Origin: a virus
Taxonomy: Duplodnaviria; Caudoviricetes
DNA length: 24,559 bases
IMG/VR virus record: IMGVR_UViG_3300025084_000215
Span: 1-24,559 of that record
Direction: 5' to 3' (one strand)
In this document: positions 1,900 through 20,898 of the stretch, one piece after another
Numbering within the stretch: position 1 is the stretch's first letter
How the letters are laid out: every line of letters starts with the position of its first letter
Notes under the pieces: model-generated
What the model saw: only the letters and a program-made list of their open reading frames with translations
What the model was told of the DNA's origin: nothing
The model's database searches: none
Program-made: the position numbers and the translations under genes

Positions 1900-4563
1900 T
1901 CAAAGATTTAATGGTTTCAAATGGAACCCGTTACAAGCCAACACGGCACCCTCAGTATCAACAACGCCACCGTGGTAAACATTTCCAGAAGCACCAATAC
2001 ATACCCAGTTTTCAAAGTTCTGAGCACCATCACCCATCATCACACTGACAAAAGGTTCCGGTTGTGTATTTACAGCACGCCAGCCGATAGAATTCGTGGC
2101 GTTTCCTTCAAAGTCCACATTATTATCATTTTCGATAAACAATGAAGGGTTATACGCTTTAAAGTTACCGCTTTGCCATAGTTGACCATTAGAGTCAAGC
2201 ATAAAGTGATAAGCGATAGCGCCAGTATTATAAATACCACGTCCTGCATAAACAATACAAGGATCACCAACTTTTACTAAAGTACCTACACTTTCGCGAA
2301 TAGAAGTAGTAGTATCTCCAGTACGGAATACACATTCAGCTAAATTCCAATCACTCGCAACGGAAGCAGTTGCACCAGATGTAATTGAGTTAGCCGTACC
2401 TTGCTGATTTGAGCCATTATAACCACATGAATACATACGGATAACACCAGAATCACCTCCATCAGTGATAAACCATTGCGTAGGTTTACGACTGCTACTC
2501 ATCCACATAGAAACAACCTCTTGGTTATCACTATTAATGGTTGTAGCCGCATCGTCTAGTTCAACAGGTAACGTTGCATCAACACCAACATTTGTACTTG
2601 AATGTACTCCATTGTTTGAACCATATTCTTCACGGTTGCCTAGGAAATATACTTTACCTTCAGTAGTTAAAATGTAAAACTTTGCACGGCCCCAATCAGC
2701 AGCATTGCCCATAACATGAGTTACAGCTTTACCATTAATGGCTGAACCAGTAACAGAAGTCATCTCAATTGGAGTGGAGCGGGCTGTTACTGAATTATCG
2801 CCTAGTTGTCCACTTGAATTATCGCCCCATCCCCAAAGCTTACCGTTCTCATCAATAGCATAAGCACTAACAGCACCAGCTCTGCCAAAACAGAATACAG
2901 AAACGATTGGTACACTACCAAAACTTGTAGGGTTAATACGTCTGAAAAAGTAGTTTGCAGTTGTATCACCTTGACCAAGCTGTCCTGCGTTGTTCATGCC
3001 CATTATAAATACTTCACCATCAGTACTTACAGCCATAAGATTTCCAATAGAATCGGAGGATGCAGCGGTGGCGTACATTCCATCTTTAGCGGAAAAAGCA
3101 AATTGCTTAAATTTCGGGCGAGCAGTACCAACTAATTCGGTTGAACCATCTTGGTCATAAGCAGCAATATTTTTCAGTGCTTCGTTAGCTGACCTCACCT
3201 GACCTTTGCCATCAGATCCAACATCAGTACCTCCACCAGCTTTAAATAGCATACCGTTTTCGGTAAGTACAATATTCTGATCTTTTACACGGTATTGTTG
3301 GATAATTTTTGGTGTTGAAAATATATTATAGCCTAGGTCATTATTCTCCAGGTCAGTCAGAAACTTTGCATCAACGGTATTACCAGCAACGGCGGCTCTA
3401 AAATGCTGGGGCAAAGACATTTGAGCAGTGTAAACTCCACTGCTTCTTGTACCTACAGCTGATTGCGGCCCCCCAATCGCTTCTGCACCATAAGTTGAGC
3501 CTGCGGTAGTAACATTGTAAAAACGGCCCCAACTATAAGTTTTACCGTTTTTTGCAACAACAGACTGGGCATGAAAGGCAGTCTCACCAGGAGTGTTGCC
3601 ACCAATGCCACCACGACCATATTCAGGATGTTGTTGGATAGCAAGAATACCAGCTGTTTGTGTATTGCGGTAGTCGTTGGCACACCGGAAGCCAAGGTTA
3701 GATTCAATTTCTGGTTCACCATAACCAGGGACAAGCGCAAGATTATTTACAGTAATAGTAATTACATCAGTGCCACTATTTTCATTACGAATTACAAGAG
3801 AAGAAGGTGATGCTAAATTTAGAGTAAGTTTAAGATCCCCTCCATTTGTAACAAAAGCTGGAACTGTAGGTACACGTCCCCCCGCGTTTGCGATGTTGTA
3901 AGCCGCATCATTTGGATCTTTTACTGAATAAGTCTCTCCATCTGCAGGGAAAGTAATCGTATAACTACGGTTACGCGATAGATTAATAGCACCATTGGCT
4001 GCATCAGTGCCATAAACATTAGTAGCATCATCTCCATCAGTAACAATACCTGTATAAGGGACTGAAGTACCGACAGAGTACGTGAGGTTTGCAGGGATGC
4101 TGTGATTAGGTTGTTCTAAAACTGTAAGAACATTATTTTTGTCCCCAACAGGAAGACGTGCGCTGTTATTACCCGCATCTCTGAAAACAATGTCACCAGC
4201 AGTGGTGAGCACATTAGAAGCAGGTGCTGGTGTCAGTAAATCCCATAGAGCAGAGCTACTGGTAGGTTCGTTGTTCGCAGTAACAGTTTGAGTTGCAAGC
4301 CAAGTTGCACTGTTATGCGTGACGACTTCATATTTGGCATAAACATTAGTTGTAGTCCACGCAGCTCTAAAGTAAAAGCCCTGCGTCATTTCATCAAAAT
4401 CACTATTTTCATAGGGATTAGTAGTATTAGTAGCAGGAATATCAGCGGTTGCTACATAAGAAGATCCGTTGTAAAGAACAACGTCATCTGTTTCGTATGC
4501 AGTGCTGTTTGCGTATGTACCTTGCCACTGAAATTTAAGTTTGCCGAGATCAATAAGTGCCAT
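1900..4563 (-). CDS. Second tail fibre / receptor-binding protein with N-terminal W.G.Y...Y..DDVV.YNGSSYV repeats and a C-terminal RCC1/BLIP-II-like beta-propeller
   Basis: 887 aa. Two CBM5/12-like N-terminal repeats (WQGTY...YETDDVVLYNGSSYVA; RAAW...YAKYEVVTHNSATWLA). RCC1-type repeats GEVFIMGMNNAGQLGQG, GKLWGWGDNSSGQLGDN, GKVYFLGN, MYSCGYNGSNQQG. Directly follows the gp17-like gene. Confidence 0.75.
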   Translation of the reverse strand: MALIDLGKLKFQWQGTYANSTAYETDDVVLYNGSSYVATADIPATNTTNPYENSDFDEMTQGFYFRAAWTTTNVYAKYEVVTHNSATWLATQTVTANNEPTSSSALWDLLTPAPASNVLTTAGDIVFRDAGNNSARLPVGDKNNVLTVLEQPNHSIPANLTYSVGTSVPYTGIVTDGDDATNVYGTDAANGAINLSRNRSYTITFPADGETYSVKDPNDAAYNIANAGGRVPTVPAFVTNGGDLKLTLNLASPSSLVIRNENSGTDVITITVNNLALVPGYGEPEIESNLGFRCANDYRNTQTAGILAIQQHPEYGRGGIGGNTPGETAFHAQSVVAKNGKTYSWGRFYNVTTAGSTYGAEAIGGPQSAVGTRSSGVYTAQMSLPQHFRAAVAGNTVDAKFLTDLENNDLGYNIFSTPKIIQQYRVKDQNIVLTENGMLFKAGGGTDVGSDGKGQVRSANEALKNIAAYDQDGSTELVGTARPKFKQFAFSAKDGMYATAASSDSIGNLMAVSTDGEVFIMGMNNAGQLGQGDTTANYFFRRINPTSFGSVPIVSVFCFGRAGAVSAYAIDENGKLWGWGDNSSGQLGDNSVTARSTPIEMTSVTGSAINGKAVTHVMGNAADWGRAKFYILTTEGKVYFLGNREEYGSNNGVHSSTNVGVDATLPVELDDAATTINSDNQEVVSMWMSSSRKPTQWFITDGGDSGVIRMYSCGYNGSNQQGTANSITSGATASVASDWNLAECVFRTGDTTTSIRESVGTLVKVGDPCIVYAGRGIYNTGAIAYHFMLDSNGQLWQSGNFKAYNPSLFIENDNNVDFEGNATNSIGWRAVNTQPEPFVSVMMGDGAQNFENWVCIGASGNVYHGGVVDTEGAVLACNGFHLKPLNL

Positions 4564-18513: not shown

Positions 18514-18558
18514 TTAGGTTTCATATTTGCAAAGGTTGGTCGTCTCGGTCTGGAGACT

Positions 18559-18581
18559 AAAAAAGGGGCCATAAGACCCCC
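18559..18581 (-). terminator. Intrinsic terminator downstream of the major capsid gene (T7 T-phi position)
   Basis: Minus strand GGGGTC-TTAT-GGCCCC followed by TTTTTT, starting about 7 nt after the stop codon of capsid exon 2. Confidence 0.85.
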
Positions 18582-18587
18582 ATAAAA

Positions 18588-18665
18588 TCAGGTGTTACGG
18601 AAAGCACCTGCAACAGAGACGCGGACTGCGCCTGCGCCCATTGCAAGGCGTCCCACAACGAGATC
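18588..18665 (-). CDS. gp10: Major capsid protein, exon 2 (DLVVGRLAMGAGAVRVSVAGAFRNT*)
   Basis: These 25 residues are the conserved C-terminus of T7-like capsid proteins (YQGD.IVG..AMG.G..R...A). In frame with exon 1 after removal of 18666..18887, and followed by the terminator. Confidence 0.92.
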   Translation of the reverse strand, partial: DLVVGRLAMGAGAVRVSVAGAFRNT

Positions 18666-18887
18666 CAAGTTATCCACACTTTAATGTGGCTCTGACTATA
18701 TCTTCACCCCTTTGGGTGCCGGACGCTATTGGTGTATTACGTGACAAGCGTGTCACACCACCTAGTCGATGCACTTTCCTCTCACGCTTGAGAGGCTTAG
18801 CTCAGGATTGCCATAGCTTTCGCCTTAGGTTTCCCTGAATTCATCCAGTGTTTATTTAACGATTACTCGCTAAAGGGGCAATCACTT
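18666..18887 (-). mobile_element. Group I self-splicing intron (222 nt, no ORF, probably subgroup IA) in the major capsid gene
   Basis: 5' splice site after U in a U.G pair of P1 (GGGU|AA-GUGA-UUGCCC); terminal G (..AACUUG|GAU). Core elements: P AAUUCAGGGAAAC (18829-18841), Q AAUCCUGAGC (18800-18809), R GCAUCGACUA (18763-18772), S AAGAUAUAGUC (18694-18704). P3 CUGGAUG/CGUCCGG, P8 CACCC/GGGUG, P9 CCACA/UGUGG. Confidence 0.93.
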
Positions 18888-19826
18888 ACCCTGATACATG
18901 ATGGAAACATCTCCACCAGAAGTTTGAACAGAAGGACCAATTGCCTCTACGGCAGCCGCTGCATCACGATGGAAAATCAATCCGCAAGAGTTGCTGAAGT
19001 CGGTGGTATCACCGTAGTCATTCTTCTCATTGGTAGTATCGGTATCTTCGATAGCTGTACCAGTGGCCACACCATACTTTCCGAGGAAAGGAATGTTGTT
19101 GGACTTTTGAATCTTGATACCGGCGATCTCATAAAGACCATCGCCAGAGTTCAAATTACCTTGGGTGTTGCCAATATCCCGATTTAAGATATTAGTGTCC
19201 ACGCTAGAAATTAAGCTATAATATTGCCTGGGGCTAAGTACAGCTACTCGGCCATCTTTAGGAGCAGAACGTTCATCTAATACAGCCGCAGCTTCAAAGA
19301 AACCGTCGACTAAAGATTGAGCATTGTACTCGTTATTTGCACCCAATCCAACAGTAAATCCACCGGGTTCACCTGTAACAGGAGCCGTGGCTACTGCTGC
19401 ACGATCAAGCACACGGAAGATACGACGGTCATAATGTTCGGCCAAACTTTGTCCGATTTGACGAGCAATTGGGCCGCGAATATCGTAGTGAGCAAGAACA
19501 CTATCGAGTTCGTAAACGAACGCTTGAGAAATAAGTAGTTGGTCAACAGTGATGGTGGTTTCGGCTTGCTTAGGGGCACCATCTGTACCACTTCCATTAC
19601 CGAGTAGTGGGGTTCCCGGCGTATGAAAACCCGCCGTCATGGTCCCGGTATGGATGAATTGGGCTTCTTTGCCGTTAGTCAGAGTACGGCTCTGAACAAG
19701 AGGCTTGGCGATTAGGGCTGTACGGAAAGATTCATACACCTCTCCAGTAAACAGCTTGAGTAGCAAGGCGCGAGAATCGCTGCCTCCATTTGACGCGCCT
19801 GGACGCGTAAGATTCATGTTTGCCAT
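18888..19826 (-). CDS. gp10: Major capsid protein, exon 1 (313 codons; spliced product 338 aa)
   Basis: T7 gp10-type motifs ALLLKLFTGEV, RTLTNGK.AQFI.TG, ITVDQLLIS..FVYELD..LAHYD.R, GR.AVLSPRQYY.L, IAGIKI.KSNN.P. Follows the scaffold gene. Confidence 0.95.
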
Positions 19827-19978
19827 GTTTATTTAAAAGTTAAAAAGTTAAATATGTGCTATGAAGATCTTCACTTAAAAAAGTATTCAGTTGTCGAGTA
19901 ATTACACCGAATGGGGTATCTCTTTCAAGGCCCAGATATATCGGGCTGGTTTTTTACAAGGTCCGAAGCTTCCTTAAT

Positions 19979-20024
19979 AAGGTGAGGGGGGAATCGAACC
20001 CCCCAAACTCAGCCAGAGCACCCT
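19979..20024 (-). ncRNA. tRNA-like (D-loop/T-loop) structured element without an anticodon arm, in the scaffold-capsid spacer
   Basis: Minus strand AGGGUG-[CUC-UGGCU-GAG]-UUU-[GGGGGG-UUCGAUU-CCCCCC]-U-CACCUU: a canonical 7-nt T-loop on a G-C stem, a small GG-containing loop and a closing helix. Confidence 0.5.
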
Positions 20025-20052
20025 TTCGTAACCGACGCCTTTTCCGAGACGT

Positions 20053-20898
20053 TTACATGAGATCCCCAGATCGCGCAAGTTTGTCTTGAACGTCGAGTCT
20101 GTATGCGGGATCGTCGCGGTAACGAGAGTCAGAAATAGCCCGAGCCAATTCGGCTTGACTACGGAAACCGGGTTCAGGACGCGGAGCCCTTACACCAGAT
20201 ACCTGCTTACCCTCGTAACCATTGGACTCGACGTATTTCGATCTAAGCCCCTGTACTGCCCAATATATGGCATCAGGGTTACCACTGGAAACCACAGAAT
20301 CATAAGCCGCAATCTCATCAGGAGCCAAGGCCTCACTAGCCCAGCCGACCATTGTTTCGTATTGGTCAGTGCCCCCAACAGAACCCATGATTCTGTCTAC
20401 TTCCTCTTGGGGCATAGCTCCTGCGGGCTGTTCAGGCTTCGAGCTATTGACGTATTCCACCCAATTCTCGATTAGCTCTTTGCTATCCAGTTGGGAGAGC
20501 TTTTCAAGGGTTGCCTCGGATAGCTGCCCACCCTCCTCATACTCCTGAGAAGCGGCTTCAAGGGATTGATAAGCCTCAGTAGGCTCAGCTTCTGTCTCGG
20601 TCTCTTCAGAGGCCTCCTCTTGCTCTTCTGCAACAGGCTGCTCCTCTGAGTCCTCGGTGCGGTCCCCAAGCTTTTTCTGAAGTTCCAAGTAAGCTTTTTC
20701 AAGCTCCTCAGCAGATTTATATTTACCGGCATAGTTGGCCTCTGTATCAAGAGCCTTTTGATCTGAGTCAAACTTTTCTTGAGCAGCTGCTTCTTGCTTG
20801 GCAATTAACTCTTCGCCACTTTGCAACGCTCGCGCTTCGGCTTCTACACGCGCAGCCTCAGAGGCTTCATCTTGGGGATTAAATGTAGTTGTGGTCAT
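20053..20898 (-). CDS. gp9: Capsid assembly scaffolding protein (T7 gp9-like)
   Basis: Acidic 281-aa protein with AGKYKSAEELEKAYLELQKKLG, VGG..QY..MV.WA and C-terminal FRSQAEL..A.SD.RY..DPAYR.DV..KL.RS motifs. Confidence 0.92.
   Translation of the reverse strand: MTTTTFNPQDEASEAARVEAEARALQSGEELIAKQEAAAQEKFDSDQKALDTEANYAGKYKSAEELEKAYLELQKKLGDRTEDSEEQPVAEEQEEASEETETEAEPTEAYQSLEAASQEYEEGGQLSEATLEKLSQLDSKELIENWVEYVNSSKPEQPAGAMPQEEVDRIMGSVGGTDQYETMVGWASEALAPDEIAAYDSVVSSGNPDAIYWAVQGLRSKYVESNGYEGKQVSGVRAPRPEPGFRSQAELARAISDSRYRDDPAYRLDVQDKLARSGDLM

Follow-up and report, generated by a model that had tools for sequence, protein, structure and literature searches.

The 24.6-kb stretch of viral DNA analyzed here (hereafter the window) is a partial genome of a T7-like podovirus, with all genes on the minus strand. 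Encoded functions include ribonucleotide reductase, a head-tail connector, scaffold, capsid, tail tubular proteins A and B, and internal virion proteins, together with fibers, an endolysin, and a small terminase; a second tail-fiber-like gene with RCC1-like repeats was observed at 1900-4563 (-). The Gp10A-like capsid gene lies in a portal-scaffold-capsid-tubeA-tubeB order, and the closest isolates are cyanopodoviruses. The nearest of these, Synechococcus phage S-CBP2 (83% amino-acid identity for the capsid), shares the gene order and has an uninterrupted capsid gene. The window phage presumably infects a cyanobacterium.

In the window, the capsid gene is split in two (Table 1). The initial annotation had reported a capsid reading frame stopping at IMYQGK*, with the missing C-terminus located downstream, and its coordinates hold: the open frame (19826..18882) encodes 314 aa, and a 222-nt gap separates exon 1 (939 nt) from exon 2 (78 nt), which once joined form a frame of 338 aa (313 + 25 codons). 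The insert begins after the U of GGU, the last base of exon 1 and a member of the U.G splice-site pair, and its final base is a G. These boundaries were set independently by the relatives of the window, in which YQG and D are separated by a gap of 0 in intronless alleles and of exactly 222 nt in three intron-bearing loci. The joined product is colinear with intronless alleles (98-99% identity), the exon 2 protein aligns to the capsid chains of Syn5, P-SCSP1u, and T7, for which structures have been solved, and coverage of Pfam PF21703 (279 positions) extends from 1-258 in the truncated form to 1-277 in the joined protein.

Because the unspliced frame includes 9 in-frame stops within the insert, a full-length capsid needs splicing. 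In P-SCSP1u, whose capsid protein is present in 415 copies per T=7 head, residues 2-328 are built in the map, and the residues matching exon 2 lie in this built part (PMC10575957). The 314-aa truncated product would probably be no working capsid, and no second capsid gene was found in the window, itself a partial genome. Alternative splice sites can yield open frames on paper but do not match relatives. As had been anticipated, automated calls truncate such capsid genes: 3 of the 120 listed protein clusters (P0022, P0025, and P0026) end in YQGK and, judging from the proteins alone, are probably truncated calls of intron-bearing genes. Beyond exon 2, the hairpin of the terminator-like element occupies 18581..18564, and a terminator scan yielded 2 sites vs. 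1.5 expected, a signal weak by itself.

Table 1 Features of the split capsid gene and its intron, with positions in the window.
Feature	Position	Strand	Evidence or remarks
Exon 1, major capsid protein gene, 313 codons ending ...YQG	18888..19826	-	PHROG 267 major head protein, E 7e-65
Class IA-like group I intron (222 nt, no ORF)	18666..18887	-	RF00028, 98.9 bits; gap vs. intronless alleles; covariation
Exon 2, C-terminal 25 residues of the capsid plus stop	18588..18665	-	Same as C-terminus of intronless L003-L005
P1 / internal guide, 6 bp, U.G at 5' splice site	18876..18891	-	96/96 cells paired in 16 copies, invariant
P2 hairpin, GUAA tetraloop	18855..18874	-	Compensatory change in 5/8 pairs
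P4-P5-P6-P6a domain (L6a loop 18789..18784)	18773..18838	-	P6a compensatory in 5/6 pairs
Catalytic domain P3, P7, P8	18693..18848	-	P7 invariant in 16 copies
P7.1/P7.1a extension (L7.1a loop 18751..18746)	18731..18762	-	8/11 pairs compensatory (two helices)
P9.0, P9, terminal omega-G (18666)	18666..18692	-	P9 4/6 and P9.0 1/3 pairs compensatory
Terminator-like hairpin and U-run	18558..18581	-	Between exon 2 and tail tubular protein A; intronless relatives have one too

The insert was recognized as a group I intron by cmscan, with an RF00028 match at 18887..18666 (model positions 1-253, E 8.8e-25) that scored well above the 50-bit cut-off. This was the sole Rfam match in the window and lies on the minus strand, where the initial annotation had proposed to look for it; the match, the boundaries, and the similarity to S-CBP2 all agree with its central claim, namely that a group I intron interrupts the major capsid gene of a T7-like cyanophage. 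The intron RNA is also predicted to fold stably (z = -3.37, 0/200 shuffles equally stable), and includes no ORF within its 222 nt and no aptamer or extra domain identified by the Rfam scan.

The intron has P1, P2, P3, P4, P6, P6a, P7 with its bulged C, P8, and P9, each of them paired, which bears out the secondary structure elements first listed, except that the GNRA loop of P1 is not kept in other copies. Within the catalytic domain, P3 pairs 18848..18843 with 18724..18719, P8 spans 18718..18705, and P7, the G-binding site, pairs 18769..18763 with 18698..18693. The P1 guide bases 18883..18880 appear, by eye, able to re-pair with the start of exon 2 as P10, and P9.0 is found directly before the terminal G. 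The L9 loop is UAAA in the window and GAAA in 13 of the 16 distinct copies, i.e., those other than the window, L006, and L015. An in-frame TGA stop (18884..18882) lies in the P1 loop, a position at which stops are thought to aid folding (PMC3984707, section 11).

Three elements were added to the earlier list: P9.0, the P7.1/P7.1a extension, and a 6-bp loop-loop complementarity between L6a and L7.1a, reminiscent of a P11-like kissing pair (91/96 cells paired), whose two loop sequences are exchanged in introns at other sites. This loop contact would correspond to P11. Class IA is characterized by extra helices between P7 and P3 and by an L6a-L7.1 loop pairing (P11), and the nested P7.1/P7.1a together with the L6a-L7.1a complementarity point to a class IA-like intron. 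The IA2 layout of Pf-WMP3 and T4, with separate P7.1 and P7.2 hairpins and a GUA linker, was not found in the window, where the extension is nested and 3/4 of its outer pairs are compensatory.

Conservation of the fold was evaluated across 31 rows, comprising the window and 30 loci with an insert at the same position (YQG^D) and representing 16 distinct inserts; this set excludes a truncated locus, three metagenome contigs that are duplicates, and L297, which was found later. These inserts range from 222 to 228 nt, with all three frames represented, and their removal restores an intact capsid C-terminus in 31/31 rows. Across the 16 distinct copies, 99.6% of the 1216 cells of a 76-pair model are paired, compared to 34-39% in slid controls, and 28/76 pairs show compensatory (two-sided) changes, with 0/500 shuffles reaching the observed values. 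These shuffle statistics are nevertheless inflated and represent no true probability, as the model derives from the sequence of the window itself and was applied to related copies. Every cell of the P3-P7-P8 and P4-P5-P6 core is paired. P1, P4, and P7 are invariant, as are the U.G pair in P1 and the terminal omega-G, while P2, P6a, P7.1, P7.1a, and P9 covary heavily and P3, P6, and P8 also show compensatory changes. Similarly, the introns of the window and L006 differ at 10 positions, 8 of them in helices, with pairing kept in all, and 2 at unpaired positions. The exon context is also shared, with CAG GGT^GAT flanks in 31/31 intron rows vs. 23/143 intronless alleles (14/69 and 9/74), and P10 changes along with exon 2 between clades (by eye). 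This level of pairing and compensation across distinct copies argues for a ribozyme under selection, and the intron is very probably functional, with splicing predicted.

The YQG^D codon is occupied by the same intron in two cyanopodovirus clades, with a total of 21 IMG/VR contigs. In the first neighbor set, i.e., the best 80 of 235 IMG/VR relatives, 72 loci reach the intron site, of which 69 are uninterrupted and 3 carry a 222-nt insert (L002, which is nearly identical to the window, L006, and L015). In the second clade (80 loci, 3 of which could not be parsed and 1 of which was too short), 2 of the 76 scored neighbors are intron-bearing, one being the query's own contig. Overall, ~3-4% of the nearest scorable capsid alleles carry the YQG^D intron and ~96-97% of close relatives are without it. 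A core-motif scan blind to exons identified 17 contigs, corresponding to the near-identical one, 15 at YQG^D, and one at a second site; the capsids of these 15 are only ~51% identical, with a C-terminus resembling the P-SSP type. Several contigs of this P-SSP-type clade were also observed to include a glutamine-II riboswitch or psbA upstream of the capsid gene. In metagenomes, all 14 matches to the P1-P2 pattern are at the YQG^D site. No cyanopodovirus isolate with the intron was found among the matches listed (40 of 215 records in one search, all 50 in another), and a two-piece tblastn match in P-SSP2 proved to be an in-frame insertion within one CDS, with no RF00028 match.

The view of the window as a single case, implicit in the initial annotation, was understated, as the intron belongs to a family distributed over five capsid sites across marine cyanopodoviruses. 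A looser motif matched 88 contigs, including 23 with a capsid match, and the sites recognized are LFSG^E (7/7 matches), SAG^Y, SP[RT]Q^Y (2), NV^Q (2), and YQG^D. Over the five sites, at least one capsid intron was observed in 29 distinct IMG/VR contigs, several of them near-duplicates, and the introns at all five sites are ORF-less and 206-233 nt long where measured. One capsid gene (L115/L298, G002:9960-11654) has five exons, separated by four group I introns that lack ORFs and measure 206-233 nt; each intron is 65-76% identical to that of the window, and intron removal yields a 332-aa capsid. Only the first of these four introns is found in L295, which has 95% protein identity to this capsid. 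By eye, the guide sequence of each intron fits its own site.

Related introns were also observed outside of capsid genes. The nearest non-capsid relatives are L182:176-409 and L128:1257-1490 (79% and 77% identical over ~157 nt), which by eye interrupt a DNA polymerase A-like frame (MYH^DEAQ) and a frame with a terminase Walker A-like motif, respectively. A second, different group I intron (G003:20596-20837, L208; 66.7 bits) is located on a contig that also has a capsid intron, in a frame resembling the ribonucleotide reductase small subunit (by eye), and eight non-capsid viral loci (L147, L149, L154, L173, L161, L167, L104, and L145) contain two related cores 300-600 nt apart. The core motif had 46 matches in GTDB that share only ~25-80 nt with the intron; those inspected were tRNA/tmRNA-intron-like (by eye), and no cyanobacterium was found among the titles of these 46 records.

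The intron can be present or absent in alleles that are 99.9% alike. The exon 1 sequences of L015, with the intron, and L016, without, are 99.9% identical, and the two loci differ only at -1 across the upstream 900 nt and only at +3..+33 downstream. L015 equals the intron-bearing L006 from -39 to +32, and the exon-2 start of L016 matches the intronless L012. This pattern is a putative short conversion-tract footprint with which gain and loss are both compatible, loss by recombination fitting equally because of the match between L016 and L012.

A second signal comes from the intron itself, since the core of the window (128 columns) shows 0 differences from L110, L117, and L123, whose capsids are only 54-58% identical at the amino-acid level, and 15 differences from L192, a member of the window's own clade (93% amino-acid identity over 46 residues). 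The window intron is a mosaic, in which both termini, unlike the core, agree with the phage clade. The capsid tree unites the window's clade (100/100), whereas the core tree, which is short and poorly resolved, does not. Core identity between phages with such dissimilar capsids suggests a recent cross-clade exchange of the intron core. Scatter alone is not significant: the intron label takes 3 changes on the exon tree, and shuffled labels reach 3 in 68/500 cases.

We found no endonuclease inside or beside any intron copy. The search, which covered fragments, three Pfam families, and a motif scan, found no free-standing endonuclease among the 20 window proteins, a single unconvincing motif match among 371 ORFs from 34 loci, and none near the capsid in five larger records (61-84% complete). 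EndoVII or HNH genes are encoded in 3/5 of these larger records, at least 8 kb away, and an EndoVII homolog occupies the same place in the intronless S-CBP2. The EndoVII of G001, a near-identical contig, was accordingly rejected as a homing partner: it lies between DNA polymerase and exonuclease, ~9 kb off, and has a counterpart in S-CBP2. A junction-anchored scan for longer, endonuclease-bearing versions returned 20 matches, among which there was no longer version: 14 were copies already known, and the other 6 had neither capsid nor core. With no endonuclease found in or near the copies, trans-acting homing or plain recombination is the default for intron movement.

Among 6 RNA-labeled runs (contigs, each with 5-11% of query words), no joint across the intron was found, which provides no support for splicing and weak evidence against it. 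One run (X3, an oligo-dT library) included a 1.8-kb contig with an L015-type intron unspliced across both exons, which may be DNA carry-over, while a joined-looking end in X2 reads GGT-GAC and corresponds to an intronless L003-type allele rather than to spliced RNA. Short intron-only contigs were identified in X4 and X5, and X5 also included the NV^Q-site intron on a contig of 282 nt, flanked by ~29 nt at either end. These are compatible with either excised intron or one arm of a two-form assembly bubble, and bring no support for splicing because spliced RNA and an intronless allele look alike there.

We consider it likely that the insert is a compact, endonuclease-free group I ribozyme, predicted to self-splice and so give the 338-aa capsid, and most probably maintained as a near-neutral selfish element moved by DNA recombination between co-infecting cyanopodoviruses. 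Following known group I chemistry, the P1-loop TGA would arrest ribosomes and the RNA would fold, exogenous guanosine bound in P7 would attack after the U.G pair, and P10 and P9.0 would then align the omega-G with exon 2 for the exons to be ligated in frame. More tentatively, the intron may spread via homologous gene conversion, probably begun by a trans-acting endonuclease, although none was found in or next to any copy. Where several copies are present, conserved cores could recombine while the ends stay fitted to the local exons.

The same splicing introns could instead have come to occupy the five capsid sites via RNA, i.e., reverse splicing into the abundant capsid mRNA followed by reverse transcription and recombination, with no endonuclease involved. 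This would fit the uniformly small, ORF-less copies at all five sites, the similarity of the four introns of one gene to that of the window, and the apparent match between each guide and its own site, and the occurrence of related introns at several positions within a single gene has been described as a circumstantial sign of reverse splicing (PMC3984707). We nevertheless judge this route quite unlikely: relatives of 77-79% identity interrupt terminase-like and DNA-polymerase-like frames, so that the introns may have arrived at each of the five sites independently, the tract at +3..+33 is in keeping with DNA-level conversion, and the absence of endonucleases is bounded by the scope of the search given above. 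A combined scenario, in which the most abundant phage mRNA receives introns by reverse splicing, seeding a five-site landing strip for an endonuclease-free family, and cores are then swapped across podovirus clades in co-infection, is in our view unlikely. If true, it would offer both a tractable system for an unproven RNA route and a marker of oceanic cross-clade co-infection.

The intron might also be domesticated, with splicing tying capsid synthesis to host GTP, Mg2+, energy state, or late-infection timing. Such a role would be plausible for the most highly needed structural gene (see the 415 copies per head in P-SCSP1u; PMC10575957), and both the stop codon at the intron 5' end and a structure under selection are compatible with it. 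It is however very unlikely, as most close relatives are without the intron, including 99.9%-alike alleles, the presence of five sites and up to four introns per gene resembles colonization, and selection on splicing needs no regulatory role, with no aptamer or extra domain detected in the intron. Finally, a dead or bypassed intron (a defective phage, use of the 314-aa capsid, readthrough, or an assembly artifact) would be in line with the lack of observed spliced RNA, the unspliced contig in an RNA library, and the non-GNRA L9 loop of the window, but is extremely improbable given that readthrough is excluded by the 9 in-frame stops, other copies shift frame, and exon 2 remains whole throughout the 31 rows. 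In addition, the insert recurs in many different contigs, as well as in a contig from one of the runs that has compensatory variants of its own, and the window, as far as this partial genome extends, lacks a second capsid gene.

As a likely self-splicing and near-neutral mobile element, the window intron can be compared to known phage introns. The initial annotation knew of no capsid-gene intron in this phage group; in its broad form, this rarity claim does not stand, as group I introns have been published for capsid genes of LittleE, Tuc2009, and crAss-like phages, but we likewise found no T7-like or cyanopodovirus capsid intron in the literature, bearing in mind that survey supplement tables could list some, and the word capsid is absent from the main text of PMC12350094 and PMC11878797. 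Pope et al. 2013 (PMC3706429) used RT-PCR and N-terminal sequencing to show that the mycobacteriophage LittleE capsid intron is spliced, and also cite a capsid-gene intron in lactococcal phage Tuc2009. LittleE and the window share a group I-type intron in the major capsid gene, preceded by U and ending in G, with all capsid subunits dependent on splicing (as a prediction for the window). However, LittleE is a siphovirus with a spliced 819-bp intron encoding an endonuclease, whereas the window is from a T7-like podovirus and its 222-nt, ORF-less intron is predicted to splice. In crAss-like Delta and Zeta phages, major capsid protein genes are split by several group I introns into up to five pieces (Yutin et al. 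2021, PMC7886860). These are also metagenomic capsid genes with several group I introns, yet they belong to large gut phages and their inserts were recognized by encoded protein domains, while here ORF-less introns are found in ~45-kb marine podoviruses.

Within T7-like phages, the cyanophage Pf-WMP3 has a spliced group IA2 intron in its DNA polymerase gene, PhiI and W31 being cited as well and such introns called rare (PMC3428280). The Pf-WMP3 and window introns are both group I introns of a T7-like cyanophage, with a P7.1-type extension and a 4-bp P10, but differ in host gene (DNA polymerase vs. capsid), ORF content (an HNH ORF in P6a vs. none), and extension (P7.1 and P7.2 hairpins vs. nested P7.1/P7.1a). 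The closest annotated copy from a cyanophage isolate is psbA intron 2 of S-CBWM1 (MG450654; 73% identical over ~155 nt), also a short, ORF-less group I intron, although the cyanomyovirus psbA introns differ from that of the window in both host gene and phage family. In S-PM2, the psbA intron is associated with the adjacent free-standing F-CphI through collaborative homing (PMC10448857, PMC3428280), a process also known for T3/PhiI and treated in PMC3984707; in S-PM2 the endonuclease adjoins the intron gene, whereas none was found beside the capsid introns. Group I introns are hence on record both for this host gene and for this phage group. What appears to be undescribed is the combination of the two, along with the ORF-less family at five sites and the exchange of cores between clades.

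Splicing-dependent capsid synthesis as such is already established for other phages, and the present data add the T7-like capsid gene, from an abundant ocean virus group, to the genes known to carry group I introns. In practice, annotation wrongly renders intron-bearing capsid genes as truncated, and one with four introns would go unrecognized as a capsid. The combination of five ORF-less sites, presence/absence pairs that are 99.9% alike, and shared cores makes endonuclease-free intron movement directly testable, and a 222-nt ribozyme with many natural compensatory variants represents a convenient small class IA model.

A further observation was made ahead of the capsid gene, where the window includes a non-coding leader at 19830-20060 (-). 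Neither an Rfam family at threshold nor a tRNA was called in this leader, which contains a tRNA T-arm-like hairpin at 19987-20003; it is kept in relatives, and its hairpins covary.
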